Shown here piece by piece: positions 20,641 through 49,947 of a stretch of 64,000 bases of DNA (the first letter of the stretch is position 1; every line of letters begins with the position of its first letter). The notes below the pieces were generated by a model that was given only the letters and a program-made list of their open reading frames with translations, made no database searches and had not been told where the DNA came from. Where the stretch lies: positions 84,089-148,088 of the forward strand of contig CACCYL010000002.1 of NCBI GenBank assembly GCA_902550225.1. The letters are read 5' to 3'. Position numbers and translations under genes: made by a program. This stretch comes from an uncultured Alphaproteobacteria bacterium. Lineage in GTDB: Bacteria > Pseudomonadota > Alphaproteobacteria > Methylaequorales > Methylaequoraceae.

Positions 20641-20750
20641 AATAGAATCATAGGTTGAAATCTAGGAAGATTTGTAATAGTTTCTTGATTTAAAATCTGT
20701 GATATTTTATGTCTTTTTTTTGATGTAAAATATGTGATTTTAGGGTCAAC

Positions 20751-23703: not shown

Positions 23704-23951
23704 TGGTTTTTAACGGATTTATATAACATTTGGGTTAAAGATATTTCTTATCTCTTTCTCTCCTTCTCTATCTGAAATCCCTGAATTCTCATATCTTGAG
23801 CTTCTTTATTTAATAATTTTCCCTCCGAGATTACTCCCCTTAATTTTCAACTAAAAGATTAACCAAATGTGAATAACACCCTCAGAGTTGATTAAGAAAA
23901 AAATAATAATAAGGGTATAATTTTATTAACTTTTTATTTAAGGAGTAAACA

Positions 23952-24029
23952 ATGGCTTGGACAAAACCAATGATTTCTGAAATCTCTGTTGGTCTTGAAA
24001 TCAATTCTTACGCTTGCGCTGAGAAGTAA
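23952..24029 (+). CDS. PqqA-like 25-aa peptide (MAWTKPMISEISVGLEINSYACAEK), copy 1
   Basis: AAGGAG RBS 6 nt upstream. The peptide aligns to alphaproteobacterial PqqA (W..P.[IV]SEI.VG[ML]E[VI].SY..AE), including the E-x3-Y crosslink pair. It is followed by an intrinsic terminator. Confidence 0.6.
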   Translation: MAWTKPMISEISVGLEINSYACAEK

Positions 24030-24058
24030 TTTCGATCTATAAAGATGAAATTTTAAAA

Positions 24059-24087
24059 GCCTGGCTAAGAAGTCAGGTTTTTTTTTT
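24059..24087 (+). terminator. rho-independent terminator after PqqA-like copy 1
   Basis: Stem CCTGGCT/AGTCAGG (7 bp with one G-U wobble), loop AAGA, then T9. Confidence 0.75.
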
Positions 24088-24290
24088 CTTAAATTAAACC
24101 TTTCCTTACCCTTTTATCTTTAAGCCTTGTCTTTTTGCCCTCTAGAGCTGATTTCATATCTACGTATGCCCTATAATAACTATTTATTGTTATCTTTATG
24201 ATTTCTATATATACCTAAAATGATAAATAGTTTTTTATAATAAATTTCTTATTTAATTTACTCTTATTTTTGCAAATCAAACACTAAATT

Positions 24291-26102
24291 ATGTCAAAAA
24301 ATATTAGGAATGTAGCTATTATTGCTCATGTAGACCACGGCAAAACCACATTAATTGATTCAATACTTAAGCAAATTGGAATGTTTAGATCCAATGAAGA
24401 GATTGGGGAAAGAATAATGGATAGTGGCGATTTAGAAAAAGAACGTGGTATTACGATTTTGGCAAAGCCTACATCAATTAAGTGGAATGGAGTAAAAATA
24501 AATATAATAGATACACCAGGACATGCAGATTTTGGTGGAGAGGTTGAAAGGATTTTATGTATGGCTGATGGAGTAATTTTATTAACAGATGCCTCAGAAG
24601 GACCAATGCCTCAAACAAAGTTTGTTTTAGGTAAAGCATTATCGCAGGGTTTAAAGCCAATTGTAATCATTAATAAAGTTGATAAAAAAGATAGTCGTGC
24701 AGATGTCGTTTTAGACGAAGTGTTTGATCTTTTTGTTACTCTAAATGCAAATGAGGATCAGCTTGATTTTCCAATACTATACGCCTCTGGAAAAAATGGT
24801 TGGTGTGTGAATGATCTCAAAGATAAAAAAGAAAATTTGCACCCTCTTCTCAATTTAATAATAGAGCATGTGCCTCCTCCAAAAATTAATTCAGAAACAT
24901 CTTTTTCATTTCTAGCAACCCTTCTCTCTTACGATACTTATGTTGGTAGATGTTTAATAGGAAAAGTTGAAAGTGGGAATGCCGAAGTTAATAAAATTGT
25001 TAAGGCAATAAATCTAAATCAAAAACTTGTAGAAAAAGGCAAATTAACAAAATTATTTTCTTTTGAGGGAAATAAAAGAATTCCTGTTAATGAAATTGTT
25101 GCAGGTGATATAGCTTGTATTGCTGGTTTAACTAATGCTTCAGTTTCAGATACAATTTGTGATAATTTAGTCTCTAAACCCATAAAATCGTCTCCGATAG
25201 ATCCCCCAACTATGTCAATAACCATTACTGTTAATAACTCACCTTTTGCTGGGCAGGAGGGCAAAAAAGTGACTTCTAATAATATTAGAGAAAGGCTTTT
25301 GGCAGAAGCTGAAACAAATGTGGCAATTACTTTTAGTGAAAATGAAAATAAAGATGCTTTTGAAATTGGCGGTAGAGGCGAACTACAATTGGGAGTTTTG
25401 ATCGAAACTATGCGAAGAGAAGGTTTTGAATTATCAGTTTCTAGACCAAAAGTATTATTTAAAACAGAAAAAAATATCAAATTAGAACCAGTTGAAGAGG
25501 TTGTAATTGATGTTGATGAAAGTTTTTCAAGCACAGTGATTAGCTCAATGAATAATAGAAAATCAGAAATGATCGATATGAAAACTTCCTCAGCAAAGAC
25601 TCGTATTATCTTTAAGTCACCTTCAAGGGGACTAATAGGTTATCAAAGTCAATTCTTAACAGAAACAAAAGGAACAGGTATTCTGAATAGAATATTTCAT
25701 GCTTATGAACCATTTAAAGGAGAGTTTAAAGAAAAAAGAAATGGTTCCTTAATATCAACTGAGACAGGTCAAGCAGTTGCATATGCAATCTTTAATCTGC
25801 AAGATAGAGGAGTAATGTACATCAAACCGCAAACCAAAGTATACACTGGAATGGTAGTTGGTGAGCATAATAAAGAAAATGATCTTGAAATTAATGTTTT
25901 AAAAGGAAAACAACTTACTAATGTTAGAGCATCAGGTTCAGATAAAGCTGTTACTTTGGTACCACCAGTTAAGATGACATTAGAGCAGATGATTTCTTTT
26001 ATAAGAGATGATGAATTACTTGAGGTAACACCTATGAACCTAAGACTTAGAAAAAAATATCTTGATTCCAATGAAAGAAAGCGTGAAAAAAAATTAAATT
26101 AA
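24291..26102 (+). CDS. typA: translational GTPase TypA/BipA
   Basis: AHVDHGKTT G1 motif, DTPGH G3 motif and NKVD G4 motif, with EF-G-like domain organisation. Confidence 0.92.
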   Translation: MSKNIRNVAIIAHVDHGKTTLIDSILKQIGMFRSNEEIGERIMDSGDLEKERGITILAKPTSIKWNGVKINIIDTPGHADFGGEVERILCMADGVILLTDASEGPMPQTKFVLGKALSQGLKPIVIINKVDKKDSRADVVLDEVFDLFVTLNANEDQLDFPILYASGKNGWCVNDLKDKKENLHPLLNLIIEHVPPPKINSETSFSFLATLLSYDTYVGRCLIGKVESGNAEVNKIVKAINLNQKLVEKGKLTKLFSFEGNKRIPVNEIVAGDIACIAGLTNASVSDTICDNLVSKPIKSSPIDPPTMSITITVNNSPFAGQEGKKVTSNNIRERLLAEAETNVAITFSENENKDAFEIGGRGELQLGVLIETMRREGFELSVSRPKVLFKTEKNIKLEPVEEVVIDVDESFSSTVISSMNNRKSEMIDMKTSSAKTRIIFKSPSRGLIGYQSQFLTETKGTGILNRIFHAYEPFKGEFKEKRNGSLISTETGQAVAYAIFNLQDRGVMYIKPQTKVYTGMVVGEHNKENDLEINVLKGKQLTNVRASGSDKAVTLVPPVKMTLEQMISFIRDDELLEVTPMNLRLRKKYLDSNERKREKKLN

Positions 26103-26322
26103 TAAATATTTTACCAAAATAGCATAACCATCTCTATGTCATAAATAATAAAACTAAGTGGTTGTTCAGTAAAACCTATACTTTTTCCTATTACTCTGCC
26201 TGTATAAGAAAGCTTCGGATTCTTGGCTCCTTTGGATCAAAATTTGGTAGTCTTTACTTCTAATTTTATCCAAAAAAAATATCGACTTAGTATAGTTTAA
26301 TGCATCGATTTGCTCTGATTTT

Positions 26323-27357
26323 TTACACACGCCAAACTGTAACACCACCTTGTCTATCCAATCCAGCAAGTGCTTTATCATCTTGACGCCAATATAATTT
26401 TGAAACAGAATCACTTACACTAGTTTCACTTAATCCACTTTCTTCATTTTCAGATTTTAAGTCCCAAAGTACTACAACACCATCCCTTGATCCTGAAGCT
26501 AAATTCATACCACGATTTGAAAAAGCTAGTGATGTAATTGGTTTAGTGTGAAGTTTTAACGATAAAGGAGATGTACCCTCAGGCCCATTGCCTTTGAAAC
26601 TCCAAACTGTTACCTCTTCACTTCCCCCTGTGGCCAAGTAGCTTCCAGTTTCGTCAAAAGACAAAGCTGAGGGTTTTAGTGGATATCCAGACATCATTGA
26701 ATCTTGCTCTGTTGATCTGCGCCAAAAATGAATTGTATTATCTTGGCTTCCACATACGACTATGTCGCTGTTTGGGCTTAATACCATTGAAACTAAAGAC
26801 CCTTTCCATTCTAATTTCTGCTTTATTTTTCCTGAAATACCATCAAAAAAGGAAACACGCCCATAGCATGTTGTAGCTAGTTCTTTTTCGATGGACCAAG
26901 CTAAATTACTTACAGTACTATTATGACTGTCAGATTGCCACATTTCATTACCCTCTTTGGTGTATACATAAATGGTTCGAGAGCAAGAAAACGCCAGCAT
27001 TTCTCCATCTTGTGACCACGATAAATTTTCTATCCAACCATCACCCAAATCAATGACTTTTTCCTTTTTTTTTTGTTGAGCATTCCAAATAATAACCTTT
27101 CCATCCTGACCTCCTGTTGCGAACCTATCAATTAATGGATGGATTGCTGTTGAAAGAATACCACCTTCATGAACTTGTCCTTGAGACCATTTCATTTTAC
27201 CAGATGTACCATCAAAGACATATATCCCTCCAGCAGCATCACAAATTATGAGAGCCTCACCATTAAAGTTCCAACCCCCAGAAATAGCGTAATCATTTAC
27301 ATAGGCTTTCCAACCACTTCTGAGAATCTTTTGGGGTTGTGTTTCCATTATACTCAT
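26323..27357 (-). CDS. WD40-repeat beta-propeller protein
   Basis: Seven WD-like blades ending in W/D dipeptides (WNAQ, WRRS, WDLK, WRV). There is a 4-nt ATGA overlap with the upstream COG0523 gene. Confidence 0.75.
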   Translation of the reverse strand: MSIMETQPQKILRSGWKAYVNDYAISGGWNFNGEALIICDAAGGIYVFDGTSGKMKWSQGQVHEGGILSTAIHPLIDRFATGGQDGKVIIWNAQQKKKEKVIDLGDGWIENLSWSQDGEMLAFSCSRTIYVYTKEGNEMWQSDSHNSTVSNLAWSIEKELATTCYGRVSFFDGISGKIKQKLEWKGSLVSMVLSPNSDIVVCGSQDNTIHFWRRSTEQDSMMSGYPLKPSALSFDETGSYLATGGSEEVTVWSFKGNGPEGTSPLSLKLHTKPITSLAFSNRGMNLASGSRDGVVVLWDLKSENEESGLSETSVSDSVSKLYWRQDDKALAGLDRQGGVTVWRV

Positions 27358-28706
27358 ACAAGACAGTCCTCAAAATCCCTTCGCATTTCCTTTTCATCAA
27401 GGTTGCGTCCAATAAATACAAGCTGATTTCGTCGAGGTAAACTTCCCCAAGGGCGATCAGGTTTTCCACTAAAAATCATATGAACACCTTGAAAAACGAA
27501 TCTATTTGACTCTCCAGCAATACTTAGAAAACCTTTCATACGAAAAATATCTACTCCTTTGTCTCTAAGAAGTTTAGAAATCCAAGCTTGTAGTTTTTGT
27601 TCATCCAAATCACCGTCTTTTTCAATTGAAAAAGAACCAACTTCGTCATCATGTTCATGTTGTGCTACCCATGTTCTTTCTACTTCGACTGCAACTTCAT
27701 CGTTATTATTTACTTCAATTAACTTCATATTGAATTCTTCTGCTGTATGTTGAGCAAAAAGACCTAATTTTGTATCTTTCTCAATTTCAATATAAAATTC
27801 TTTTGGACCAGACGACTCAAGGTTTAAGTTGACATGTTTTCCTTTAGGAATTATTTCTTCTGGTTTGATTGATTTGGCGTCTTCAGCGTAAAGGCGAACG
27901 CAGCGCTCAGCAGAATTTCTCAAACTTACATCATCTGCATTCTGATCAGGCACAACAACAAGAGACATAGAAGGGTCAGGACCCTCAGACATAATGATTT
28001 TATATTTACCACATTTAGTTGGATAAATTCCCGTCCATTCAAATGGATATTCTGGTTCTAGAAAAGTAGGACGGCGTGTAAGAGCCTGGTCTAAATTAAA
28101 GGCACTTTTATCAAGGACAGAGTTAATTGGAACATTGGCCATTTCACTCCTAATGAATTTTGCCATTTTATTCATTTCCCGAAGACGGGCTTCTAAATTA
28201 TCAAGTTCTGAGTCTTTGACAAGATCTGTTTTGTTAAGAACAATAACGTCTGCAAATGCAATTTGTTCCGTACTTTCGTTACTTCTTCCAAGTTGTTGAT
28301 TTATATGAAATGTATCAACAAGAGTTATAATTCCATCAAGAGAAAACTCTGAACTTATCTCATCATCCATAAAAAAAGTTTGAGCCACTGGACCTGGATC
28401 TGCAAGACCAGTAGTCTCTACAACAACGTAATCAAATTTATCACGCCTTTTCATGAGGTTCCCAAGTACTCTAATTAAATCACCACGAACTGTACAACAA
28501 ATACAACCATTGGCCATCTCAAAGATTTCTTCCTCTGCATTTATTACAAGAGCTTGGTCAATACCAACCTCTCCAAATTCATTTTCAATCACAGCTATTC
28601 GTTTTCCGTGTTGCTCGCTTAAGATACGATTTAGTAAAGTGGTTTTACCTGAACCAAGAAAGCCAGTTAGAATGGTTACAGGAACCTTTTTAGATGAACT
28701 ATCCAT
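27354..28706 (-). CDS. COG0523 (CobW/ZigA/YjiA) metallochaperone GTPase, long form with an extended linker
   Basis: P-loop GFLGSGKTT, the family-defining metal-binding CxCC (GCICCT), and a CobW_C-like C-terminus. There is a Zur box upstream of the operon. Confidence 0.85.
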   Translation of the reverse strand: MDSSSKKVPVTILTGFLGSGKTTLLNRILSEQHGKRIAVIENEFGEVGIDQALVINAEEEIFEMANGCICCTVRGDLIRVLGNLMKRRDKFDYVVVETTGLADPGPVAQTFFMDDEISSEFSLDGIITLVDTFHINQQLGRSNESTEQIAFADVIVLNKTDLVKDSELDNLEARLREMNKMAKFIRSEMANVPINSVLDKSAFNLDQALTRRPTFLEPEYPFEWTGIYPTKCGKYKIIMSEGPDPSMSLVVVPDQNADDVSLRNSAERCVRLYAEDAKSIKPEEIIPKGKHVNLNLESSGPKEFYIEIEKDTKLGLFAQHTAEEFNMKLIEVNNNDEVAVEVERTWVAQHEHDDEVGSFSIEKDGDLDEQKLQAWISKLLRDKGVDIFRMKGFLSIAGESNRFVFQGVHMIFSGKPDRPWGSLPRRNQLVFIGRNLDEKEMRRDFEDCLV

Positions 28707-28887
28707 TTTCTTCTCCATTTAAAATTGTCATTCTTTTTCCTAGATCTCTGCGAAGTTTTGTAATTGCATATGGTTTCATATTTTTCCACTTTTTGCATTC
28801 CTCACGTGTTCTGCCACAACCAATACACCATGAATTTTTCCCTATAAATTTGCATATGTCAATACATGGACTTTTATTACGTTTCAT
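28699..28887 (-). CDS. DUF1289-family small Cys-rich protein (YdhL-like)
   Basis: SPCIDIC-x7-CIGCGRT-x-EE-x2-W matches the DUF1289 pattern. It is the first gene of the Zur-box operon. Confidence 0.65.
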   Translation of the reverse strand: MKRNKSPCIDICKFIGKNSWCIGCGRTREECKKWKNMKPYAITKLRRDLGKRMTILNGEENG

Positions 28888-28918
28888 ATGTAAAGTTCTA
28901 AATTTTATTTTTTATTAT

Positions 28919-28939
28919 TGTAATGTTATAACATAACAC
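28919..28939. promoter_or_regulatory. candidate Zur box (TGTAATGTTATAACATAACAC) in the divergent intergenic region
   Basis: Perfect palindrome TGTTATAACA within GTAATGTTATAACATAAC. Compare the proteobacterial Zur consensus GAAATGTTATAWTATAACATTTC. Confidence 0.55.
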
Positions 28940-28998
28940 TTTATAGTATAGTTTTATTAAATAAAAAAACATTATGTATTCAAAAACTTTATGTAAAC

Positions 28999-29355
28999 AT
29001 GGATTTAATTATTGAAAATCTTTTAGGCCAAGCAGGCGGAAATTTCAAAGGACTTATATTTGGTTTTGTTCACGTTGCGATAATGATTGTAGGTTATTAC
29101 ACTGGTTTTAGCATAAATAAATTTTTAAAGATTCTTTCCAATGGCTATGTTGCTGGGATCTTTGGCGTAGTTTTGTCTCATATCATTGCAGACATAATTG
29201 CTTGCTATTTAGATCCAGACCTTAGAAAAATGATTTTTGGAGTAGTTATTGGTGGTATAATTCCTCTTTTTTTCATACCAATATTAGAAAGATTTGTTGT
29301 AAAAAGTAAACAAAGTTTTTTAGATGAAACAAAAAAAGAGTTAAATAGATCCTGA
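28999..29355 (+). CDS. small membrane protein (3-4 TM), unknown function, downstream of a Zur box
   Basis: Hydrophobic segments, with Gly-rich GVVIGGIIP. Confidence 0.5.
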   Translation: MDLIIENLLGQAGGNFKGLIFGFVHVAIMIVGYYTGFSINKFLKILSNGYVAGIFGVVLSHIIADIIACYLDPDLRKMIFGVVIGGIIPLFFIPILERFVVKSKQSFLDETKKELNRS

Positions 29356-29484
29356 CTAAAGATCTATTATTAAAAAATTTTTTGTTGTTCTTTTCCTTGT
29401 CATTCCTCCAATATTTAGAAGCCACTGACTCTGACTATTTTGAGGCTTGATTTGATAATTTTTTACCAAAATAAATTTATTATT

Positions 29485-29506
29485 GAAATGTTATATTATA
29501 ACACTT
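29485..29506. promoter_or_regulatory. candidate Zur box (GAAATGTTATATTATAACACTT)
   Basis: It matches the Zur consensus GAAATGTTATAATATAACATTTC at 19 of 22 positions, and lies about 50 nt upstream of the second COG0523 gene. Confidence 0.65.
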
Positions 29507-29555
29507 AATATAAAATCCTTACTTTGATTTAGTTAAATTTTGTGGAGAATTTATA

Positions 29556-30770
29556 ATGAAAGTTTTAGATAAAAAACTTCCAGTCACATTATTGTCTGGA
29601 TTTCTTGGTGCTGGAAAAACAACCCTTTTAAATCACATTCTTAATAATCGACAAGGTCTAAAGGTTGCAGTTATTGTGAACGATATGAGTGAAGTAAATA
29701 TTGATGCAAATCTTGTTGAGCGTGGAGGTGGTAACTTATCTCAAACTGAAGAGAAACTTGTAGAAATGAGCAATGGATGTATTTGCTGTACTTTACGTGA
29801 AGATCTTTTAATTCAAGTTAGAGAGTTAGCAAATGAAAATAAATTTGATTACCTTCTTATAGAAAGTACTGGTATCTCTGAACCTTTGCCAGTAGCAACT
29901 ACTTTTGACTTTCGTGATGAGGATGGAGCTAGTTTATCTGACGTAGCAAAACTTGATACAATGGTGACTGTTGTGGATGCTGCAAATCTTATAAAAAATT
30001 ACAGCTCTACTGATTTTTTAAAAGATAAAGGAGAAAGTCTAGAAGATGATGAACGAACACTTGTTGATCTTCTTGTCGAACAGATTGAGTTTGCCAATGT
30101 TATTCTATTGAATAAAATTGATTTAATATCCTCTGAAGAATTAAAAACTGTTAATGCAATTATAAGTGGACTTAACACTGAGGCAAAGGTCTTTGAATGC
30201 TCTCATTCGACCGTGAATCTCAAAGAAGTTGTTGGTACTGGATTGTTTGATCTTAAAAAAGCTTACACTCATCCGTTATGGGCAAAAGAACTTTATAATT
30301 TTAAAGATCATCTTCCTGAAACAGAAGAGTATGGTATCACAAGTTTCGTATATTTAGCCCGCGAACCATTTGATCCATCAAAAATCTATAATTTCTTCAA
30401 TCAAGAATGGCCTGGTGTAATGAGATCAAAAGGCTTTTTTTGGATTTCGAGTCGACCTGAATTTATTGGTGAGGTTTCTCAGGCTGGTGCGTTTGTTCGT
30501 CATCAGGGAATTGGAAGATGGTGGACAACTGTACCGAAAGATCGTTGGCCAGAAGGACCTAATTTTGATGCTTTGATCGATAAATATTGGAATAAAGATT
30601 ATGGTGACCGTCGACAAGAAATAGTTTTTATAGGTTTAAAGTCTGAAATGAGTGAAAAGAACATTCGAGAGAGGCTAGACGCTTGTCTGATTAAGAACTA
30701 TCTTGATGATCCTAGTGCATATCATAAAGCTCTAGATCCCTTTCCAGCATGGTTTAAAAAAGTAGCTTAA
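29556..30770 (+). CDS. COG0523 (CobW/YjiA/ZigA) metallochaperone GTPase, standard length
   Basis: P-loop GFLGAGKTT, CxCC motif GCICCT and a CobW_C domain. Confidence 0.88.
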
Positions 30771-30967
30771 ATGATTGAAAGCCCTTTATTTACTCTATCT
30801 CTTGAGCATAAAGAGCATCCAAAATCTTTAATTTTTTTAGTTATACTTATTTATTGCCTAGGATCTTATATCATCTCATTTTACCGTCCACCTTTACATC
30901 ACTTTATAAAATTATATGATTAAGAGATGTATTTGATATTTAGTTTTTTTTTTTATTTTCTTCAGAT

Positions 30968-31513
30968 TTGTTTTCAAAAGAAGTAAATGTGTACGATATT
31001 ATTTCAAAAAACTCTAATTTATCTACTTTCAAAGATTATCTCGATAAAACAGGACTTGATAAAGTTTTACAAAAAAAAATTCCATATAATTGGACAATTT
31101 ATGCTCCATCAAATAATGCTTTTGAAAATACTCCAAAAGAACTGGAGAAATCAGTTTTAAAAGATACTTATTATTCAAAGAGGCTGTTCACCGACCATAT
31201 CTTAACAAAAGAAATTTTGGCTTCAGATGTAACAGATCAAATAACCACTGAACTAACAGTGAGTAATAAACCCATTAAATTATATAGAAGTGAAAATCTA
31301 TTTGTTAAAGATGTAGTTATAGTGAAGGAAGATATAATAGCAGAAAACGGAGTTGTACATATAATTGATTGTATAATGTTTATTCAACCAAGTTCACAAG
31401 ATAGTAGGTTAAGTTCAAGTCAACAAGATTCATTTCCAATAACTTCCTGTTGTATGCAAACTGAGAGTGAAATTTCATTATGGAAACAAAATACGAAAAA
31501 AATAGTTTATTGA
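30968..31513 (+). CDS. fasciclin (FAS1) domain protein
   Basis: FAS1 H1/H2 motifs (TIYAPSNNAF ... NGVVHIIDCIM). The ORF as given starts with TTG and shows no signal peptide, so the start is uncertain. Confidence 0.65.
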   Translation: MFSKEVNVYDIISKNSNLSTFKDYLDKTGLDKVLQKKIPYNWTIYAPSNNAFENTPKELEKSVLKDTYYSKRLFTDHILTKEILASDVTDQITTELTVSNKPIKLYRSENLFVKDVVIVKEDIIAENGVVHIIDCIMFIQPSSQDSRLSSSQQDSFPITSCCMQTESEISLWKQNTKKIVY

Positions 31514-31534
31514 CCTTAATTTTAAAATAAAATT

Positions 31535-31894: not shown

Positions 31895-31904
31895 TAAGAT
31901 ATAT

Positions 31905-33053: not shown

Positions 33054-33430
33054 CTATAATCTATAAACATTTAATATTTTATTATACTAATGCCTCAAAT
33101 ACTCTCAACATAATATGTTATTTTCATTGAGTACGAATAAAAGATGAATAATTTACTGGTTTAAAAAAAAAAAGAATATAATGATATCAATGACTTAAAA
33201 AAAATAGTTTGACAAATGCATCTCAATTTAATATTCTGTAAAAATATATTCATTCGAGTTTTAGATTTTTTTGACATAGAATCAATACATCTCCTCACTG
33301 TTTCTTCATTATGAAGTTTTTACAATCACTTCATACTTGTTTAATTATATTCACCGATAGAGTTGTTTAAGGTGAAATAACAAGTTACGATCACCAATCT
33401 AGTTTAGATAAATTTAAAGGGATTTAATAG

Positions 33431-34267
33431 ATGAAAGATACATTTATGCGAAGTTGTGAACATTGGAGTGAATCAAGTCGCAATGAAATGCAGAATTTTT
33501 ATACTCTTGCCTCTGTCGATTATAAACATCTAGCAGAGAAATTTAACTGGAAAGAATGGCTTGAAGCACATCAGGCTAATATTGGCAAGCGTGGACTAAA
33601 ACTTCTAGATATTGCTTGTGGATCAGGTAAATTTCCTTCAGCACTAATTCAAAATGCTAATTTGTCAAACGCAAAAATATTACCAGTGGAATATTCACTA
33701 CTAGATCCGTCTTCATTTTCAATTGCAGAAGCACGCAAGGTTATTCAGTCACCATTTAAAACTAGTTCAGAATTTGAAACTACTTTACAGGAATTTTCTT
33801 GTGAGCGAGAAACTTATGACATTATCTGGGCAACGCACGCTCTTTACGCAATTCCAAAAAACGAACTTAAAAAGGCTTTAAAACGTTTTATTTTTGGAAT
33901 GGCTAGATCGGGTTTTATTGCTCATGCAAGTGAAAAATCTCATTACCTTCGATTTTACAGACATTATTTAAATGGTTTCAAAGGTGGTTCTGGAGAACCG
34001 TATTCAAGTGCTGAACAAATTTTACAAATACTAAAAGAGATTGATATTCCTCATAAAGTTAAGAAAATTACATACGAAAATGGTGTTTCAGAGACAGCAT
34101 CTTTGCAAGTTGAAGGATATCTGCAACGTTGTGTTTTTGATGATACAATTGACCTTGAGAAAATGCTCAAAAATTCGGTTACTGGACCTTATCTAGACAA
34201 TTGTATCAAAGATGGACAATGGTGTTTTAAGCAAGAAGTAATGATGATTTTTCTATCGAAAGATTAA
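33431..34267 (+). CDS. class I SAM-dependent methyltransferase
   Basis: Motif I LDIACGSGKF. Confidence 0.7.
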   Translation: MKDTFMRSCEHWSESSRNEMQNFYTLASVDYKHLAEKFNWKEWLEAHQANIGKRGLKLLDIACGSGKFPSALIQNANLSNAKILPVEYSLLDPSSFSIAEARKVIQSPFKTSSEFETTLQEFSCERETYDIIWATHALYAIPKNELKKALKRFIFGMARSGFIAHASEKSHYLRFYRHYLNGFKGGSGEPYSSAEQILQILKEIDIPHKVKKITYENGVSETASLQVEGYLQRCVFDDTIDLEKMLKNSVTGPYLDNCIKDGQWCFKQEVMMIFLSKD

Positions 34268-34332
34268 TTTTTATGACTAAGAGTAATTTTTCTAGATGTC
34301 GAATGTGAGAAAGCAATCATAATTTTTAATAC

Positions 34333-35559
34333 ATGTTTATAAAACGAATTTTACTCGCTACCACACCAGAACTTAGTTTAGGTTTATTTTTAATTTTTAG
34401 CTCGAGCGTTGGTCAAACTTTCTTTATTTCTCTTTTCTCTGGAGAAATAAGAAATGCGTTTAATCTCTCTCATGGAATGTTTGGAATACTTTATTCCGTT
34501 GCAACACTAACAAGTGCTACACTTTTTTTTTGGTTAGGAAAAATCACAGACCAATTTAATTTGACTGTTCTTGGATTAATAACTCTAGGAATATTAAGCG
34601 GATTTTCATTTCTTTTATCAAGTGCTGAAACACTTCTCATACTTTTCTTGTCTTTATTAGGTCTTCGCTTGTTTGGTCAAAGTATGATTAGTCATATAGC
34701 AGTAACCGCAATGGCCCGCTGGTTTTCAAAGAAAAGAGGAAGAGCTTTAAGTGTTGCACTAATAGGACACCCTATTGGAGAGGCACTATTACCCTCTCTA
34801 ATTACTTTCTTTTTATTTCAGTACACATGGCGAGAAATCTGGGTTGGAATAGGTACGTGTATAATAATTATTTTTTTACCTTTAGTTTACTGGCTTGGAA
34901 GACACATTAAATTTAATAAGCATAATAGTAAACAAAAAAAATCAAAAGAAAATTTGATTGTTTCTTGGAATCGATCACAAGTCTTAAAAGATTTAAGATT
35001 TTACCAGGTTCTTCCTGGATTACTTGCTTCTCCCTTCATAGTGACTGGAGTTTTTTTTCATCAGATTCACTTGATTGAAACTAAATCTTGGTCGATTACA
35101 CTTTTAGCATCCTCCTACCCTTTTTTTGCTTTAAGTGTGATTGGGGTAACTTTTGGGGCTGGCTGGATAATCGATAGATTCGGCACAGTGCATTTATTGC
35201 GTTTTTTTTTGTTACCGCTTGCATTTGGTTTGCTCTTAATAGTAGCTACAGACAAAGCATTTGCTATTCCTATATTTATGATCTTAATGGGAGCATCTGC
35301 TGGATCAGCAACTATTATCATAAGTACTCTGTGGGTTGAACTTTATGGAATTAATTATCTTGGTTCAATCAGATCTATGTTTTTTTCTATGGTTGTGCTT
35401 GCTACTTCAATCTCTCCAGCACTTATAGGGTTATTATTAGACACAGGTGTAACATTGGAAATCCAATTTATTATATTTACAATTTATATCTTTATTTGCT
35501 CAATTATTTTTGCAATATTAACACCTAATCTTTTAATTGCTCGATCCCCTCCTTCATAG
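34333..35559 (+). CDS. MFS transporter
   Basis: 12 TM helices arranged as two 6-TM halves with a central loop. Confidence 0.75.
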   Translation: MFIKRILLATTPELSLGLFLIFSSSVGQTFFISLFSGEIRNAFNLSHGMFGILYSVATLTSATLFFWLGKITDQFNLTVLGLITLGILSGFSFLLSSAETLLILFLSLLGLRLFGQSMISHIAVTAMARWFSKKRGRALSVALIGHPIGEALLPSLITFFLFQYTWREIWVGIGTCIIIIFLPLVYWLGRHIKFNKHNSKQKKSKENLIVSWNRSQVLKDLRFYQVLPGLLASPFIVTGVFFHQIHLIETKSWSITLLASSYPFFALSVIGVTFGAGWIIDRFGTVHLLRFFLLPLAFGLLLIVATDKAFAIPIFMILMGASAGSATIIISTLWVELYGINYLGSIRSMFFSMVVLATSISPALIGLLLDTGVTLEIQFIIFTIYIFICSIIFAILTPNLLIARSPPS

Positions 35560-35591
35560 AGCTTTTTAGGATTTAGAAGCTCGAACTGATG

Positions 35592-36989
35592 TTATTTTCT
35601 TAATAGTTTAAAAACAAAAAAAGTAAGAACTCCAGATATTATACCTGGAGCTACCTCGTAAATATAAGTATTTAGTTCGTAATGTCTCCATACCATTAAT
35701 GTTATCAAGGGTATAATCATCATCATTAATGATGAAAATTCAGAAACTTTTTGTTTTAGTGAGTTAACTATTAATAAAGGAGAAAAGCAACAAGCTAATG
35801 TTGACCATGACATTAAGACAAGGTTGAAGACGTTTTTATTATCATTTATTGCAATTGTAACAACAAAGACTGTGATAATTAAAGTTGCTAATTTATTTAT
35901 TAAATAATTGTTATTTTTATTCAATGAAAGATCGTTTGTAATTGAAGCGGTACAAGCAAGTATTTGAGAATCTGCTGTTGACATTGTGGCAGCAAAAATA
36001 CCAGCTAAGATTACTCCAACAAAAAATTCAGGTAATAAACTTTGTGCCAAAGTTGGTAAGGCTAATTCTGGGTCCAAATTGTTGGTTTCTGGGATTAGTA
36101 GTCTTGCTACAAAAGCCGCTAAAATGGAAAATAAATAGAATAAAGTATACCAAGTGTAATAATATATTCTTGTTTTTGGTATGTTTTTAGTACTATCAAT
36201 TGTCATAAATCTTACCATAACATGAGGTTGACCTATCACACCCACACCTGAGAAAAACCAACCGATAATGAACATGTATGGAGCTAATAAAAATTCTGAA
36301 AAATTTGTTGATGGAAACCATTTCATATAATCTGGAGATATTTTGTGTAATTCATCTATGAAGATAGAAACCCCACCTACTTCTTTAATTCCAAAAAAAA
36401 CCATTAAAAACATGGCAACTATCATTACAAAAGATTGAGCGGCATCCGTCCAAATAGAAGCTCTTATTCCTCCTGAAAAACAATAAAGTAATACAATAAC
36501 TCCACCGATGATGGCACCTAGTCTATAATCTAAACCAAATATAACATGCATCGACTTACTTCCAGCATTAAGCTGAGCTGCTGCATATGTAGATAAAAAA
36601 ATAAGAATGATTAATCCACCAAACAATTGTACATATTTATAATTTTTGCCATGCCATTGGCTTACCAAATTAGCAAAACTTACAACCTTTAATTCCTGTG
36701 ATTTCTTCCTTAAATTTTTATGTACAAAAAGAGATGAAATAAAATCGCCAAAAATCAATCCAAACATTAGCCAGACAGATTGCAAACCATAAACATATGT
36801 AAACCCAATCTGACCAATAAACATGTATCCACTATTTGATGTTGCGATGGCTGATATAGCTGCCAACCATGGCTTAACTTCTTGATTTGCAAGGAGATAG
36901 TCTAGAGACGTATTTTTTTTCTTAAGAACTGACAAAGATCCTATCAACGTAAATAAGAAAAGAAATAAACAAAAACTAAAAAATATCAT
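35592..36989 (-). CDS. sodium:solute symporter (SSS family)
   Basis: SSS-type N-terminus (DYLLANQEVKPWLAAISAIATSNSGYMFIGQ). Confidence 0.75.
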   Translation of the reverse strand: MIFFSFCLFLFLFTLIGSLSVLKKKNTSLDYLLANQEVKPWLAAISAIATSNSGYMFIGQIGFTYVYGLQSVWLMFGLIFGDFISSLFVHKNLRKKSQELKVVSFANLVSQWHGKNYKYVQLFGGLIILIFLSTYAAAQLNAGSKSMHVIFGLDYRLGAIIGGVIVLLYCFSGGIRASIWTDAAQSFVMIVAMFLMVFFGIKEVGGVSIFIDELHKISPDYMKWFPSTNFSEFLLAPYMFIIGWFFSGVGVIGQPHVMVRFMTIDSTKNIPKTRIYYYTWYTLFYLFSILAAFVARLLIPETNNLDPELALPTLAQSLLPEFFVGVILAGIFAATMSTADSQILACTASITNDLSLNKNNNYLINKLATLIITVFVVTIAINDNKNVFNLVLMSWSTLACCFSPLLIVNSLKQKVSEFSSLMMMIIPLITLMVWRHYELNTYIYEVAPGIISGVLTFFVFKLLRK

Positions 36990-36996
36990 GAAGATA

Positions 36997-37926
36997 TTAT
37001 TTTTTTAGAGAGCAGATTTTTGAAGTCTTCTTTACTACTAATCGATTTACTGGAAGATTAAACTCACTAAAACCATCAACTGAAGTCTTATCAAAGTAAT
37101 CTGAAAGTTCTGATACTAAAATCTCATAATGCTTGGACGATAGAACTAGTGAAGCGTAGAAAAAACCTGAAACTTCTTTAGCTAACACTTCTGGAGTTTG
37201 TTTAAAAGAAAGCACATGAGGGGTAATATTTATTTCACAGTCATAAAATATTTTTTTAACGAGTTTATCTAAAGTTTTTAAAGATCTAACCCTTGGATCA
37301 CCTAATTCTAACAATCCATAATTAGGAAATATTTTTTGAACAAATTTATATATTATGTTGTGGATTTCTAAATATCCAGTTGCAGAATGTAAATCTCCAT
37401 CAACAATTGCTGAGAAAATACCCTGATTTTTAAGTATCCTTTTAATGGTTTTTAACACTGGAACTAAAGGATCCATTAAAGTTAAAGCCCAATGACAAAA
37501 TATAACGTCTTTTGAGGCATCTTTGATAAAGTTTAATTTTTGAGCCTTTGCGTTATAAAAATCTACATCTTGATCATAAAGTCTGGTCCGTGCGAGTTTA
37601 AGTTCGTTATCATTCATATCCACTCCGGAAAGTTTGACGTTAAATGGAAAACGTTTATTACAATACTCTAAAAGAACCCCACTTCCGCATGCCAAATCAA
37701 GAATATCGATGTGAGAATTTGTATCGATAGTATCAATTAGTAATTCATAACTATTCTTTCCATTTAAATCACAACAACTGGTTGCAATCTTTTCTGTAAA
37801 ACCTGCATGTCGATTGTGGATAGTATGAAGATGATCTAGTAAATCTTGACTATTTGGGTTTTCACCTGAATCGATTTTATTCATCCATGAAGAGTTAAAG
37901 TTTTTATAATTATTTTTGAAGAGCAT
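36997..37926 (-). CDS. class I SAM-dependent methyltransferase
   Basis: Motif I LDLACGSGVLL. Confidence 0.7.
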   Translation of the reverse strand: MLFKNNYKNFNSSWMNKIDSGENPNSQDLLDHLHTIHNRHAGFTEKIATSCCDLNGKNSYELLIDTIDTNSHIDILDLACGSGVLLEYCNKRFPFNVKLSGVDMNDNELKLARTRLYDQDVDFYNAKAQKLNFIKDASKDVIFCHWALTLMDPLVPVLKTIKRILKNQGIFSAIVDGDLHSATGYLEIHNIIYKFVQKIFPNYGLLELGDPRVRSLKTLDKLVKKIFYDCEINITPHVLSFKQTPEVLAKEVSGFFYASLVLSSKHYEILVSELSDYFDKTSVDGFSEFNLPVNRLVVKKTSKICSLKK

Positions 37927-37938
37927 AAAATTTTTAGA

Positions 37939-38952
37939 CTAAACTTGATTATTTGCAGGCCAACAAATTGGGTTTAAATTACTTGAGACAATTTCACCTG
38001 GCTTAGTTTCAGGAATAAATTTTTTCCAATCTCCTGAGATCATAGTAGGATTATTTACAACACGCGCACCGTCTGCAAAATAGGTATTGGCTAAAACAAT
38101 TCGACTTTGGGTTGTTTTATTTTCAGAGGCAGTGTGGAAACTAAGATTATGATGAAAACTTACCTCACCTAATTCAAAAGGTTCTTCAACAATTGAAACT
38201 TTTTCCTTTTTAAAAATATCAATTATTTTTTTATCGTAACTAGTATCAAATTCGTTAAATTCAATATTTTCTACAAGTTTATAAATCTCTAATGGCTTTG
38301 CAAAAGTTAAAGGACCCATCTCAATCGGGATTGCTTGAGCAGGAATCCAGGCAGTTACCACATCATTTGTTTCTAATGGAAAATGATGATCATCATAATG
38401 CCAGGGTGTACGACCACAGCCTGATTCTTTAACTAAGGCGTTATCATGATAAAGACGAATTTTTTTTACTGAGAGTAATTCAGCACAAATCTTTGCAATA
38501 CGTGAACTTAAAACAAATTCTTTGATTACAGTATTTTTTAACCACATCATTTCAAGACTTAAAAAACGATCTTTTTTATTTTCGTTATAATTTTCAAATG
38601 TCTTTTTTAAAAGCGATAGGATTTCATGTCTTAAAAGTTGAATTGCAGCTGGTGTTAAAACGTTCTTTAACTTTATAAAACCGTTTTTTTGAAAATTTGA
38701 TATATCTTGTGTTGTTAGGTTGTAAGGTTTTGAGAGTTGCTGTTTTAAATCAATTTTTGATGCATCTTTTATATTTGGTGGTTCAGGCAGTTCTAACAGA
38801 ACCTCCTTGGTTTTAGAATTTGAGTTATCAGCTAGAGAAACATACCAATCCCACCAAGCCTGATTATCCTTATCCCATTGTTTATTCTCACCTGTGCTTG
38901 ATTCGCTGGATTTAAAATCAGTTTCTTTCTTTAAATTTATGTTTTCAGTCAT
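37939..38952 (-). CDS. phytanoyl-CoA dioxygenase (PhyH) family Fe(II)/2OG oxygenase
   Basis: HxD facial-triad motif (TPWHYDDHHF), a distal His and PhyH-like length. Confidence 0.7.
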   Translation of the reverse strand: MTENINLKKETDFKSSESSTGENKQWDKDNQAWWDWYVSLADNSNSKTKEVLLELPEPPNIKDASKIDLKQQLSKPYNLTTQDISNFQKNGFIKLKNVLTPAAIQLLRHEILSLLKKTFENYNENKKDRFLSLEMMWLKNTVIKEFVLSSRIAKICAELLSVKKIRLYHDNALVKESGCGRTPWHYDDHHFPLETNDVVTAWIPAQAIPIEMGPLTFAKPLEIYKLVENIEFNEFDTSYDKKIIDIFKKEKVSIVEEPFELGEVSFHHNLSFHTASENKTTQSRIVLANTYFADGARVVNNPTMISGDWKKFIPETKPGEIVSSNLNPICWPANNQV

Positions 38953-39390
38953 ATTTTAATATGTAATGAAAAGAAATCTTATTTGTATAAAATTTTAAAT
39001 AATTACTATAACTAAATCGCATTAAATAGTTTTATTAATTTATACATTGTTTCTTTTGAATTACCTTTATTTAAAATTCTTAAAACTTGCTTGCTGAATT
39101 TTTAATTTCAGACTTAAAACATTATGAATTTAAACTAAAAATAGCATAAAACATAGAACTTCTTCAAATTTTAACTATTTTTAAATATTATGGAAGTGCT
39201 TGAAAATCTAGCTTACGGTAGAGGCGTTCTATTAATAATCTTCTTCACTGGATTGATTATTTATCTAATTATAAAAAAAAATAAATAAATTCAATTGTTT
39301 ACCCGTGAATTCTAGCTATATAACTTAGATATTTTTCTTCAAAAATATTTCACCATTAATTCTAATTTAGTCTAATAAATCTTTAATATT

Positions 39391-40260
39391 TCATTTGGAA
39401 ATAGTATTAAATTCCCTTGCATAACTGCGAAGTTTATCAATCATCACATTTCGTTGTTTGTCCGACGAAATTGCTAACATTTTTATTAAAAGTATCTTGA
39501 AACGAGATATTGAAGCTTGAGAAAAATCTTCATAATTGGGATTTATAATTTCATGGCCTCTTATCAAGAGTTTGTTTAAATAAGCATTAAGCTCTGCTTC
39601 ATTTGTCTGAGATTTCATAAATCTTACGAATGCTTTTTGACGTAGTGTCCTGTTATGCAAACGAACCCTTGCGTCATTAAGTGTTTCATGCGAATGGGTT
39701 TCTAGAATTTCAATTTGAGCATTTGTTAGATCTCCAAAAAATCTTTTAAAATTTTTACTTAACTTATCAAAACGATCTTTATATCTTATTTCTCTTGGTT
39801 CCGAAAGTTTGATGATACGTTCTTGTTGACGCATCAACATTTGCTTTTTCATAAATTCGATAGCTTCATCATTATTGATGCGAGTGAGAAACCTTGATGC
39901 ATTTGGTGTTAAACCAACAATAGTATCTTCAATTAGAGTACGACCTTCATCAATAATTATAGTTATTTTGTTTGCATCATATTCTCCCATTTCTAATGTA
40001 TCTGCAATATTATCTAGGTAGGAAGCGTAACTTGGCATCATTGATGTTCTGTGCCAATTTATCATTTCTGAAACTTGCTGATTCATCAGTAATTTTTCTT
40101 CTTCATCCAAATCTAGAAAGTAATTAATCTCATCTTTAATGAATTTATCCGTAAATGAATAGATTAGTCGAGTACTTGAACAAGCCGTTACTAAAATGAT
40201 AAAAAATAACAATGATAAGGAATGATAAACCTGTTGTTTAGAAAAAATTGTCATTACCAT
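39391..40260 (-). CDS. lipoprotein, unknown function
   Basis: Lipobox LVTAC after a hydrophobic h-region. Confidence 0.5.
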   Translation of the reverse strand: MVMTIFSKQQVYHSLSLLFFIILVTACSSTRLIYSFTDKFIKDEINYFLDLDEEEKLLMNQQVSEMINWHRTSMMPSYASYLDNIADTLEMGEYDANKITIIIDEGRTLIEDTIVGLTPNASRFLTRINNDEAIEFMKKQMLMRQQERIIKLSEPREIRYKDRFDKLSKNFKRFFGDLTNAQIEILETHSHETLNDARVRLHNRTLRQKAFVRFMKSQTNEAELNAYLNKLLIRGHEIINPNYEDFSQASISRFKILLIKMLAISSDKQRNVMIDKLRSYAREFNTISK

Positions 40261-40355
40261 TTAATTTTATAGCTTGTTATAGTTGACGCAATTACGAAAA
40301 ACTTTGTGCTTTTTTTTATTCTATAAATAATTTAAATAAACCAACTCTATCGTAA

Positions 40356-40730
40356 CTAATCAAAACTAAGTGTGTTAAAATATTCATTTATGTCACCAGA
40401 ATAAAAAATGCAGTCTCCTACTTTTGAATTATTTAAATGAACGCCTATAAAGAGTTCTAAAGTTTTTCGTAAAATTTCTCTGGTAAATATATCACCCTCT
40501 ACATCAAGCTTTATAAACTTTTGAGTGATTTCATAAAGACCATTATTTTTATAATAATCGCTTTCTGAGTTTGACGATGCGTGTCTTATAACTTCATTAT
40601 TATTTAAAAACTCATATCCAAATACTTGGTATTTTCCCTCACAAATAAGATTCTTTCCAATTAAATTATCAAATGACATTACTTCAAAAGATAGAAATGA
40701 ATAAATAAATATTAGTAATAACTTTTTCAT
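40356..40730 (-). CDS. secreted hypothetical protein
   Basis: Signal peptide MKKLLLIFIYSFLSFEVMS. Confidence 0.45.
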   Translation of the reverse strand: MKKLLLIFIYSFLSFEVMSFDNLIGKNLICEGKYQVFGYEFLNNNEVIRHASSNSESDYYKNNGLYEITQKFIKLDVEGDIFTREILRKTLELFIGVHLNNSKVGDCIFYSGDINEYFNTLSFD

Positions 40731-40785
40731 TAATTTTATTTCATTGTAAATGTTTTCAAAGGAATTAATAACCGGATTAATTTAA

Positions 40786-41460
40786 TTACCTAATTCTGGA
40801 AAGGACAGTCCATATCATTCTCAAAGATATTAAATTTTTGAATACACCAACTACATAGGTAAAAGCTGCAGCTCGAAGAATAGAACGACATGAATCATGA
40901 TAAACTGCTGGAATTTTTTTTTTAATAATTGGCATAGCTTTATTAAAACTTGCATCTAATTCCACTTCAAGTGTAACAAGATGAATAACTACCCCAACAA
41001 ATAAGCTTAGTAGAATAAGTAAAATGCATACTTTAATAAGTGGAAGGTAACCTGTAGCAAATATTATTGGTAGTCCAATATAAATAACAGCAAATGCGAT
41101 TTTATTAATCCATAGAGTATTTTTAACAAGTTTTGTTCTTGTAATCAGTGGAGTGTAGTTTTCAGCGTGTTGAATTGCATGACCTATTTCATGACAAATA
41201 ATTGAAATAGATGTTAAACTTTTTTTTCTAAGTCTATCTTCTCTTACTTTGACTTTTCTCTGATCTAGATCATAGTGATCGCCTATTAAGGTTTTCTCCA
41301 AACAAACGTCTTTTAATTCCAATTCTTTAATTAGCTGATTCCCAAATTCAATGCCATTAAAGGGCATATTCGGTAAGATTTCATCATTCTTTTTAAAAAC
41401 ATAATTGATCCAAATAACCGGAAGAATTGATATTGATAAAAGAACAATTAGAAAAATCAT
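40786..41460 (-). CDS. membrane zinc metallopeptidase (YugP family)
   Basis: HEIGHAIQH (HExxH), an N-terminal TM helix and C-terminal TM helices. Confidence 0.75.
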   Translation of the reverse strand: MIFLIVLLSISILPVIWINYVFKKNDEILPNMPFNGIEFGNQLIKELELKDVCLEKTLIGDHYDLDQRKVKVREDRLRKKSLTSISIICHEIGHAIQHAENYTPLITRTKLVKNTLWINKIAFAVIYIGLPIIFATGYLPLIKVCILLILLSLFVGVVIHLVTLEVELDASFNKAMPIIKKKIPAVYHDSCRSILRAAAFTYVVGVFKNLISLRMIWTVLSRIR

Positions 41461-41731
41461 AATATTTATTTAATGTATAAATTAATATTAGCTAGATGTT
41501 TATAAATATAAATTATTTTTCTACGTAATTATCGTATGATTTTGTATTCAATGTGAATAAAAAATAACAGAAGATAATCTACATTTAAAATATTTATTAA
41601 TAATTGCTTACATAGTTTAGTAATAACATTTCTTTTCAAATACATTAACAAGATATGAATATTAGAATCAGTAAACGTTAATTTAGATTTAATATAATGA
41701 ACTTTAATATTAACTTTTTAAAGGATAAATA

Positions 41732-41809
41732 ATGGCTTGGACAAAACCTATGATTTCTGAAATCTCTGTAGGTCTTGAAATCAATTCTTACGCTTGCGCT
41801 GAGAAGTAG
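41732..41809 (+). CDS. PqqA-like 25-aa peptide, copy 2 (identical peptide)
   Basis: AAGGA RBS. The only differences from copy 1 are two synonymous substitutions (CCA/CCT, GTT/GTA) and a TAA/TAG stop. Confidence 0.6.
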   Translation: MAWTKPMISEISVGLEINSYACAEK

Positions 41810-41839
41810 TTTCAAACTATAGATTAATTTCTTTAAAAA

Positions 41840-41867
41840 GCCTGGCTAAGCAGTCAGGTTTTTTTTT
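41840..41867. terminator. rho-independent terminator after PqqA-like copy 2; probably bidirectional, since it also abuts the minus-strand gene at 41873
   Basis: Stem CCTGGCT/AGTCAGG, loop AAGC, then T10. Confidence 0.75.
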
Positions 41868-49941: not shown

Positions 49942-49947
49942 TAAAAT

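Follow-up and report, generated by a model that had tools for sequence, protein, structure and literature searches.

Two dispersed, nearly identical pqqA genes in a marine alphaproteobacterium: orphan copies that probably raise the supply of the PQQ precursor

Why would a small marine genome carry the same 25-codon gene twice, in the same orientation and well apart on one contig? The question is raised by a 64,000-nucleotide (nt) stretch of DNA from an uncultured alphaproteobacterium (assembly GCA_902550225.1, contig CACCYL010000002.1, positions 84,089 to 148,088), hereafter the window, in which two direct repeats each hold a gene resembling pqqA, which encodes the precursor peptide of the cofactor pyrroloquinoline quinone (PQQ). 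An earlier note on this DNA regarded the repeats as translated genes under purifying selection and proposed that they could mediate deletion or excision of the block between them. The analysis presented here leads to a different view of their role. Very probably, the two repeats are orphan (satellite) pqqA copies, that is, co-regulated mini-genes raising PQQ-precursor supply in a marine methylotroph that depends on the methanol dehydrogenase XoxF. The two genes are located as follows:

23952-24029, + strand: pqqA copy 1 (type c1), 25 codons and TAA, encoding MAWTKPMISEISVGLEINSYACAEK with the Glu16-X3-Tyr20 cross-link motif
41732-41809, + strand: pqqA copy 2 (type c2), 25 codons and TAG, encoding the same peptide, MAWTKPMISEISVGLEINSYACAEK

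The peptide MAWTKPMISEISVGLEINSYACAEK is recognized both by the Pfam PqqA model (PF08042; 30.8 bits versus a cutoff of 21.1) and by the NCBIfam equivalog TIGR02107 (36.7 bits versus a cutoff of 20). PqqA is expected to comprise about 20-40 amino acids (aa) with a Glu-X3-Tyr motif, and the 25-aa product displays this motif as E16-I-N-S-Y20; the glutamate and the tyrosine are the residues that are cross-linked to build PQQ. Both are invariant in 55 out of 55 compared copies, with the caveat that E, I, N, S and Y belonged to the search pattern. Furthermore, the identical 25-mer is encoded directly upstream of verified pqqB-C-D-E genes in relatives of the host (L079, L008, L031, L095 and others) and also constitutes the operon pqqA of L064, L069 and L018. 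Within the 64-kb window itself, Pfam scans of all open reading frames (ORFs) of at least 100 aa revealed no PqqC, PqqD or radical-SAM/SPASM protein, and because the maturation genes are absent from the window its two genes are classified as orphan pqqA copies. An ORF with the MBL fold (4332-5174) was considered as PqqB and rejected, scoring 27.7 bits against a cutoff of 245.

The two ORFs differ at 3 of 78 nt, namely, in codon 6 (CCA/CCT), in codon 13 (GTT/GTA) and in their stops (TAA/TAG), so that, as the earlier note had claimed, the coding regions are distinguished by synonymous substitutions and the stop codon and by nothing else. A pattern search allowing up to 3 mismatches found exactly 2 sites in the window (0 expected from 100 shuffles). 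A repeat finder reported two segments, 23937-24041 versus 41717-41821 (105 nt, 91% identity) and 24051-24086 versus 41832-41867 (36 nt, 94% identity); the segments are offset by 1 nt, and therefore the short, diverged 3' spacer contains a 1-nt indel. The longest perfect match is 38 bp (23991-24028), followed by matches of 20 and 17 bp. The repeat boundaries first proposed, 23941-24087 and 41721-41867, proved accurate and correspond to the span from the ribosome-binding site (RBS) to the end of the terminator T-run, but the similarity goes further upstream than had been assumed, since motif-level homology reaches to about -95 (23858-23896 and 41644-41682). The extent of the unit is clearest for copy 1, for which orthologs are found in other genomic surroundings:

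23830-24101, + strand: full c1 cassette, about 90% nt homology kept where both flanks are other genes (L075, L099)

The respective alignments run from L075 1003-1273 to 24101-23830 and from L099 663-934 to 24099-23831. Because the homology of c1 orthologs persists over 23830-24101 despite different flanking genes, the conserved unit is estimated from these alignments at about 270 nt and not 147.

To place the two copies among their relatives, species-representative genomes were scanned for DNA matching a degenerate pattern of the peptide core, which yielded at least 116 loci. In high-GC Rhodospirillales-like genomes, related peptides are found inside canonical pqqA-B-C-D-E operons, the proteins of which were confirmed with NCBIfam equivalogs and then served as probes. 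A large group of low-GC (25-36%) marine alphaproteobacterial single-amplified genomes (SAGs) and metagenome-assembled genomes (MAGs) encodes MAWTKP[M/T/I]ISEISVGLEINSYACAEK. Many genomes of this low-GC lineage combine a pqqABCDE operon with one to three solitary pqqA genes, that is, 2-4 copies and one operon. The lineage thus has what defines an orphan-pqqA organism: solitary pqqA genes, one pqqBCDE set and XoxF5 methylotrophy, the last of these taken from the literature (PMC12542740). Four pqqA types can be defined, each with its own 5' and 3' flank signature and with synonymous markers fixed across species:

c1 type (window copy 1): upstream ...TTTAAGGAGTAAACA; codon 6 CCA; downstream TTTCGATCTATAAAG...
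c2 type (window copy 2): upstream ...AAAGGATAAATA; codon 6 CCT, in all c2 orthologs; downstream TTTCAAACTATAGAT...
T type: Thr7, TCA12, GGA14 and GAA24; adjoins an AAA-ATPase-like gene and recQ
Operon type: GAG10, CTA15 and TCA19

No pqqBCDE genes were found beside the Thr7 orphan, the neighbours of which encode the AAA-ATPase-like protein, a 398-aa protein and RecQ. As a separate observation, inverted, near-adjacent pairs of identical pqqA genes are present in two MAGs, SAT166 and LRMED-289 (L004 312-365, + strand, and 471-524, - strand; L112 1552, + strand, and about 2400, - strand). The flanks of the L004 pair are mutual reverse complements near a contig end, and this pair looks like an assembly or amplification artefact.

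Variation among the copies points to selection on the peptide. Among 55 copies from many species, 19 of the 25 codons vary synonymously, whereas amino acid changes are confined to position 7 (M/T/I) and two singleton Ser-to-Ala substitutions. Residues 21-25 (ACAEK), which lay outside the search pattern, are invariant. Moreover, the amino acids of pqqA are kept across lineages in which the neighbouring proteins are only 50-80% identical. The earlier claim of purifying selection on a real PqqA-type coding gene is thus supported by the pattern of substitutions. Silent sites are conserved as well: in comparison with the distant MED657, the same codon is used at 0.86-0.91 of identical residues in pqqA versus 0.48-0.72 in six neighbouring genes, a difference that is based on just 22 comparable pqqA codons. 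The C- and G-ending codons ATC, TAC, TGC, GAG and AAG are retained in a genome of 30% GC. We infer that this silent-site conservation arises because a gene expressed at high level is selected to be translated efficiently. A hairpin within the coding sequence was considered as its cause and rejected, as the synonymous changes (TAC/TAT, GAG/GAA) are not compensatory and codon-usage selection is simpler.

Each of the two genes is embedded in a set of putative expression signals:

23858-23896, + strand: upstream module of copy 1 (ATTAAC 23858-23863, gTGAATA 23869-23875, TCAG 23882-23885, TTAAG 23892-23896), a putative operator or -35 region
41644-41682, + strand: upstream module of copy 2 (ATTAAC 41644-41649, ATGAATA 41655-41661, TCAG 41668-41671, TTAAT 41678-41682)
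23892-23921, + strand: promoter-like site of copy 1, TTAAGA-18 nt-TATAAT, with 10/12 consensus matches (a consensus match only)
23940-23945, + strand: RBS of copy 1, AAGGAG, read from the sequence, 6 nt before the ATG and kept in all c1 orthologs
41720-41725, + strand: RBS of copy 2, AAAGGA, read from the sequence and kept in c2 orthologs
24055-24087, + strand: intrinsic terminator of copy 1, with hairpin 24055-24082 (AAAAGCCTGGCT-AAGA-AGTCAGGTTTT), 12 pairs and T10; dG -17.5 kcal/mol, z = -3.2
41835-41867, + strand: intrinsic terminator of copy 2, with hairpin 41835-41864, 13 pairs and T9; dG -15.3 kcal/mol, z = -3.0

The upstream module precedes 65 out of 80 copies for which enough upstream sequence is available, with all four types represented. 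Background matches amount to 2 in 1.15 Mb, one of which falls inside a coding region; within the window, the module occurs only at 23870 and 41656, i.e. at both pqqA copies. Its consensus is A.ATTAAC..aatATGAATA-N6-TCAGa.tt.aTTAAgat for orphans and aATGAAT.ttaaATGAATA...aaATCAG..TattTTAATa for operon copies, the distance from TCAG to the ATG being 63-71 nt in the former and 80-85 nt in the latter. The elements of the module recur with a period of about 11 nt. A -10-like hexamer (TAYAAT or nACAAT) lies about 18-19 nt downstream of the module and is equally spaced in c1 and T-type orthologs. If the promoter call holds, transcription of copy 1 would begin around 23928 and stop in the T-run; the 147-bp repeat originally described would then approximate the transcript itself, and the weaker similarity upstream of it would represent the promoter and operator. 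The sharing of one upstream module by all four types suggests that they are co-regulated. Besides these elements, the leader of operon-linked pqqA genes can form a short hairpin, located after the promoter-like region and before the RBS, which orphans do not have (L079 4216-4232, - strand, with equivalents in L031, L036, L018, L103 and L111). Its stem changes from genome to genome while pairing is kept (AGCCCA...TGGGCT, GCTCG...TGAGC, CTCAC...GTGAG and GCTTGCA...TGCAAGT).

A GC-rich hairpin followed by a T-run, the hallmark of Rho-independent termination, is present at both copies. The stems differ between paralog types, but pairing is kept (GCCTGGCT/AGTCAGG, GCCTGACT/AGTCAGGC, CCCAGCT/AGCTGGG and GCCTGGCA/TGCCAGGC). 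Of 63 orphan copies, 48 have a T-run of exactly 9. In operon-linked copies the stem is stronger (mean -25 versus -18 kcal/mol in orphans), but the median length of the T-run is 5. This contrast fits orphans that terminate fully and an operon copy that reads through into pqqB; the operon hairpin between pqqA and pqqB may act as an attenuator.

The identity of the host would explain a demand for PQQ. The window shares about 98% nt identity with MAG CM1_5m.P40 and SAG AG-908-P05; for AG-337-K15, AG-359-F09 and several metagenome contigs the value is 94-96%. Assignments to a picocyanobacterium and to HIMB59/AEGEAN-169 were rejected, papers on HIMB59 being silent about both PQQ and these genomes. 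On the basis of the identities, its host is assigned to the same species as CM1_5m.P40, in the genus GCA-2691245 ('Methylaequor') of the order TMED127 ('Methylaequorales'). Both CM1_5m.P40 and AG-908-P05 have been placed in TMED127, an order of streamlined (about 1.5 Mb), probably obligate marine methylotrophs that, by recent work, surpass all other methanol oxidisers of the oligotrophic surface ocean in transcriptional activity (PMC12542740). According to the same study, the PQQ- and lanthanide-dependent methanol dehydrogenase XoxF5, the dominant protein-coding transcript of the host, accounts for 16-57% of the transcripts mapping to the sister genome, SAG AG-892-F10; transcription is high for a PQQ-dependent glucose dehydrogenase too, and PQQ biosynthesis genes sit in a 'methylotrophy island' of CM1_5m.P40 (PMC12542740). 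The supplementary gene and transcript table for the lineage lists pqqB, pqqD and pqqE at the coordinates of L079 and has no pqqA entry (PMC12542740), probably because routine gene calling misses ORFs as short as 78 nt. We found a complete pqqABCDE operon in AG-892-F10 (L079), and the T-type locus of this genome is 97.2% identical at the nt level to that of the same-species AG-908-P05. Since AG-892-F10 has both the operon and a T locus like that of the window's species, and CM1_5m.P40 has PQQ genes, a pqqBCDE operon almost certainly exists elsewhere in the genome of the window, predicted to lie behind a further pqqA with an identical peptide.

Collectively, these data suggest how the copies may act. 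Each would be a self-contained transcription unit of about 270 nt, in which an operator/promoter module is followed by an RBS within a short leader, the 25-codon ORF and, at the end, a strong terminator. The product of the window genes would be converted to PQQ via binding by PqqD/PqqE. One PqqA would be consumed per PQQ made, and for this reason extra terminated, co-regulated pqqA units would raise precursor supply for PqqD/E-B-C while leaving enzyme expression unchanged. We further propose, tentatively and with the odds against it, that the helically phased module AT(G/T)AA(T/C)-N5-ATGAATA-N6-TCAG-N6-TTAAG/T defines a dedicated PQQ-precursor regulon under one regulator, in which the orphans, and not the operon copy, supply most PqqA and transcription of the precursor is the control point for XoxF5 loading, possibly on a diel schedule. 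A candidate would be a response regulator similar to those governing mxa/xox/pqq genes in Methylorubrum. More speculatively still, the ultra-conserved cassettes might double as homology anchors for the swapping of adjacent flexible genes.

Several points weigh against the interpretation of the repeats as co-regulated orphan pqqA genes. By Pfam scans, and by the PqqB model applied to the MBL-fold ORF, pqqB, pqqC, pqqD and pqqE are all absent from the 64-kb window, and linkage to the pathway rests on relatives and on the published description of the same-species MAG. A simple sigma-70 scan of copy 2 gave no convincing -35/-10 pair, and the promoter and operator assignments are drawn from consensus matching or conservation. 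Many of the compared copies are orthologs, so that their counts do not correspond to independent events. What this analysis observed directly is how similar the sequences are, which family they belong to, how the paralogs are structured and conserved, their terminators, the upstream module that they share and the lineage in which they occur; that the pqqA copies are transcribed, translated and co-regulated, and that their peptide ends up in PQQ, is what we infer.

Of the other explanations, the one that fares best, although we consider it improbable, is that the two copies are recombination substrates around an excisable or deletable accessory block of 17.6 kb or, more broadly, that pqqA cassettes are homology anchors for swapping flexible gene cassettes. 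RecA-dependent recombination in Escherichia coli has a threshold of about 25 bp. The 38 bp of uninterrupted identity between the directly oriented copies exceeds it, and recombination is thus physically possible. Furthermore, the flanks of c1 and c2 differ in relatives, with breakpoints exactly at the cassette ends: the gene order in MED657 is PhyH-c1-like ... SSF-c2-like-CobS-CobT, c1 and c2 are just 1.8 kb apart in AG-907-I19, and an indel comprising the SSF gene (21812-23829) abuts the cassette boundary at 23830. In the metagenome contig L125, compared with AG-915-O07/L129, one copy's 3' flank is connected to the 5' flank of a different copy, and L137 and L128 share the type of 3' untranslated region but have different 5' types. 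However, breakpoints at cassette ends are also expected from selection against disrupting a functional unit, and the identity drop in AG-907-I19 lies between PhyH and the Zn-peptidase gene and not at pqqA. L125 is one short contig from a different genus, the two sides of which are 97.6% and 93.4% identical, as expected of an assembly chimera across a repeat.

The products that such recombination should leave behind are likewise missing in close relatives, whose 16 copies from genomes and 22 from metagenomes include neither a c1-upstream/c2-downstream chimera nor the deletion junction SSF-pqqA-AdhesinE. Both copies and the block between them are kept on one contig in three same-species assemblies, and the length differences between relatives are internal indels near typA. 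The spacing of c1 and c2 is 17,780 bp in the window and 14,435, 14,438 and 14,282 bp in CM1_5m.P40, AG-908-P05 and AG-337-K15, respectively. The intervals absent in relatives are 26122-29467 (CM1_5m.P40 and AG-908-P05), 27236-30732 (AG-337-K15) and 26107-31534 (contig L127), nested indels within 26107-31534, directly after typA, at a spot that is not bounded by pqqA, in genomes that are otherwise 94-98% identical. The genes at this flexible spot encode a WD40 protein, a CobW-like protein, a 118-aa ORF, a ZigA-like GTPase (585 bits versus a cutoff of 600) and a fasciclin protein. Pfam domains of integrases or recombinases are not found between the copies, and the GC content is flat across the window (0.26-0.36). 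With neither chimeras nor junctions, with length changes that are internal and on the typA side, and with paralogs that keep their own markers, deletion or excision mediated by the repeats is not supported; the gene orders of more distant genomes, the SSF indel and L125 speak weakly for a lesser form of the idea, in which the cassettes are recombination anchors. The related description of the interval as mostly accessory holds for the variable spot next to typA (about 26.1-31.5 kb), but not for the housekeeping gene typA itself or for the block that is conserved in all close relatives. For the TypA protein of the window, no identical protein is on record.

As an observation in its own right, contig L125 (FUFK010785954.1) was compared with L129 and with L073+L005. 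In this related genus, a 2.6-kb block (hyp215-HMA-hyp127-AdhesinE') has a c2-type pqqA gene at each end. In L125 the AdhesinE' side of one of these genes is fused to the hyp215 side of the other, with the junction precisely inside the repeat; the contig is either a recombinant or an assembly chimera.

It is very unlikely that recent duplication or ongoing gene conversion, and not purifying selection on the peptide, accounts for the similarity of the two copies. What speaks for such an origin is that there are only 3 differences in 78 nt and that members of the species differ in the stop codon of c1, which is TAA in the window and TAG, the c2 state, in CM1_5m.P40 and AG-908-P05; the latter could be a micro-conversion tract, and micro-conversion between c1 and c2 may occur. 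However, c1 and c2 orthologs with the same flank signatures are present in several genera, codon 6 is fixed by type as CCA or CCT, the flanks beyond the cassette are unalignable, and the operon and T types have fixed synonymous markers of their own. The peptide is, moreover, conserved where neighbouring proteins are only 50-80% identical. Because the copies group by type and not by genome, c1 and c2 are interpreted as old paralogs with orthologs in several genera, which excludes a recent duplication as well as wholesale gene conversion.

Slightly less credible again is the possibility that the repeats are non-coding, representing a small RNA or a terminator-containing repeat, or that they encode a PqqA-like precursor for a RiPP pathway (peptides made by the ribosome and modified after translation) other than that of PQQ. 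The absence of maturation genes nearby and the unusual conservation of silent sites would agree with this, as would the folding of the whole transcript, which is better than that of shuffled sequences (z = -2.7 and -4.5). By contrast, variation is overwhelmingly at third positions with amino acids kept, the start codon and RBS are conserved, and the product matches exactly the peptide whose gene immediately precedes pqqB in this lineage. Pfam scans found no other radical-SAM/SPASM gene in the window, and neither copy has a match in Rfam at gathering thresholds. Finally, that the duplication is an assembly artefact, one locus having been assembled twice, has practically no chance of being true and is already refuted by independent assemblies: the copies have different flanks and fixed differences, they do not collapse into one but are both present on single contigs in three independent same-species assemblies (MAG CM1_5m.P40 and SAGs AG-908-P05 and AG-337-K15), and the context of each is recovered on the independent metagenome contigs L127, L130, L119 and L122.

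The surroundings of the two orphan pqqA genes display further features. A tandem array of three 166-nt tRNA-Ser(TGA) units occupies 20751-21172, of which ARAGORN calls units 1 and 3 and Rfam only unit 1, and a fragment corresponding to the 5' half of tRNA-Ser is located at 18457-18502. Between the fragment and the array there are a DNA methylase gene (19185-20078) and hypothetical ORFs; the whole region (18457-21172) may be what is left of an integrated element. The gene preceding copy 1, which encodes a sodium:solute symporter (21812-23829), is itself an indel relative to SAG AG-892-K07 (L099), in which a 130-aa ORF (21344-21736 in the window) directly adjoins the c1 cassette. The block MT278-MFS-SSF465-MT309-PhyH (33247-39090; L075 2139-8000) is 97.8% identical at the nt level in SAG AG-907-I19, whereas the neighbours of the block in that genome (Zn-peptidase, DUF6279 and HMA cluster) are just 50-77% identical to those of the window at the aa level. 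This mosaic suggests recent transfer between lineages. A Zn_peptidase_2 (PF04298) gene adjoins orphan pqqA in three arrangements: divergent from c2 in the window (40786-41460, - strand), divergent from c1 in L075 (1432-2049) and convergent with c1 in L099 (17-634). It does not do so in MED657 or the AG-915-O07 group, and a role of the enzyme as a PqqA-processing peptidase is pure speculation. Downstream of copy 2, a metal-related cluster (46115-50958) encodes an HMA-domain protein, a DUF1826 protein and a ZnuD-like TonB-dependent receptor, whose 217 bits fall far short of the ZnuD cutoff (950). In other genera, a c2-type pqqA is immediately flanked by the receptor gene on one side and the HMA cluster on the other (L073, L129, L132 and L022).

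The four conserved pqqA units, two of which are in the window, complete the annotation of the PQQ pathway of TMED127, the metabolism of which depends on the PQQ-dependent XoxF5 and glucose dehydrogenase. With the coordinates and the candidate cis-element at hand, existing metatranscriptomes can be re-mapped to compare precursor supply with the diel rhythm of xoxF5.

The arrangement can be compared with four known systems. Like deletable islands flanked by rrn, insertion sequences or tRNA genes, the window has two direct repeats around a block of variable content; unlike in such islands, the repeats are short (about 165 nt, with perfect identity of at most 38 bp), there is no integrase or recombinase, and relatives show neither deletion nor chimeric products. 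In prochlorosin procA families, the precursors diversify the core peptide and give rise to many products. These families share with the window lineage the scattered short precursor genes, the streamlined marine genome and one maturation system encoded elsewhere, but here the peptide is invariant and the copies would therefore serve dosage or regulation and not diversity. The operon-linked pqqA of pqqABCDE(F) has in common with the window copies the peptide family, the E-X3-Y motif, the RBS and a hairpin directly after the stop codon. In contrast to it, the window copies are not followed by pqqB and end in a full terminator with T9-T10 versus a weak T-tract.

The closest parallel is provided by methylotrophs with multiple or orphan pqqA genes, which likewise combine one pqqBCDE set with dispersed solitary pqqA genes encoding identical or nearly identical peptides and with a high demand for PQQ-dependent methanol dehydrogenase (PMC4109929, PMC11317620, PMC9851590). 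Thus, Methylophilaceae have 3-12 pqqA copies and a single pqqBCDE (PMC4109929), the orphans pqqA2 and pqqA3 of M. extorquens AM1 are up-regulated under some lanthanide conditions (PMC11317620), and three of the five pqqA copies of the methylotroph strain FJNU-6 are solitary and differentially expressed (PMC9851590). Methylovorus sp. MP688 also has five copies and, in the account of Ge et al. 2015 given in PMC11317620, the availability of PqqA is rate-determining. By analogy, the retention of several precursor copies in a streamlined genome of roughly 1.5 Mb argues that PqqA supply may limit cofactor production in the window's lineage as in Methylovorus. In the papers searched, we came across no description of a division into four conserved paralog lineages, of an upstream module shared by them or of terminators that differ between orphans and the operon copy. 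Unlike the methylotrophs listed above, the host belongs to an uncultured, streamlined (about 1.5 Mb) marine alphaproteobacterial order and has four old paralog lineages at conserved positions. Multi-copy orphan pqqA is already well known in methylotrophs, and the window displays this known, otherwise ordinary genomic pattern in a new lineage.

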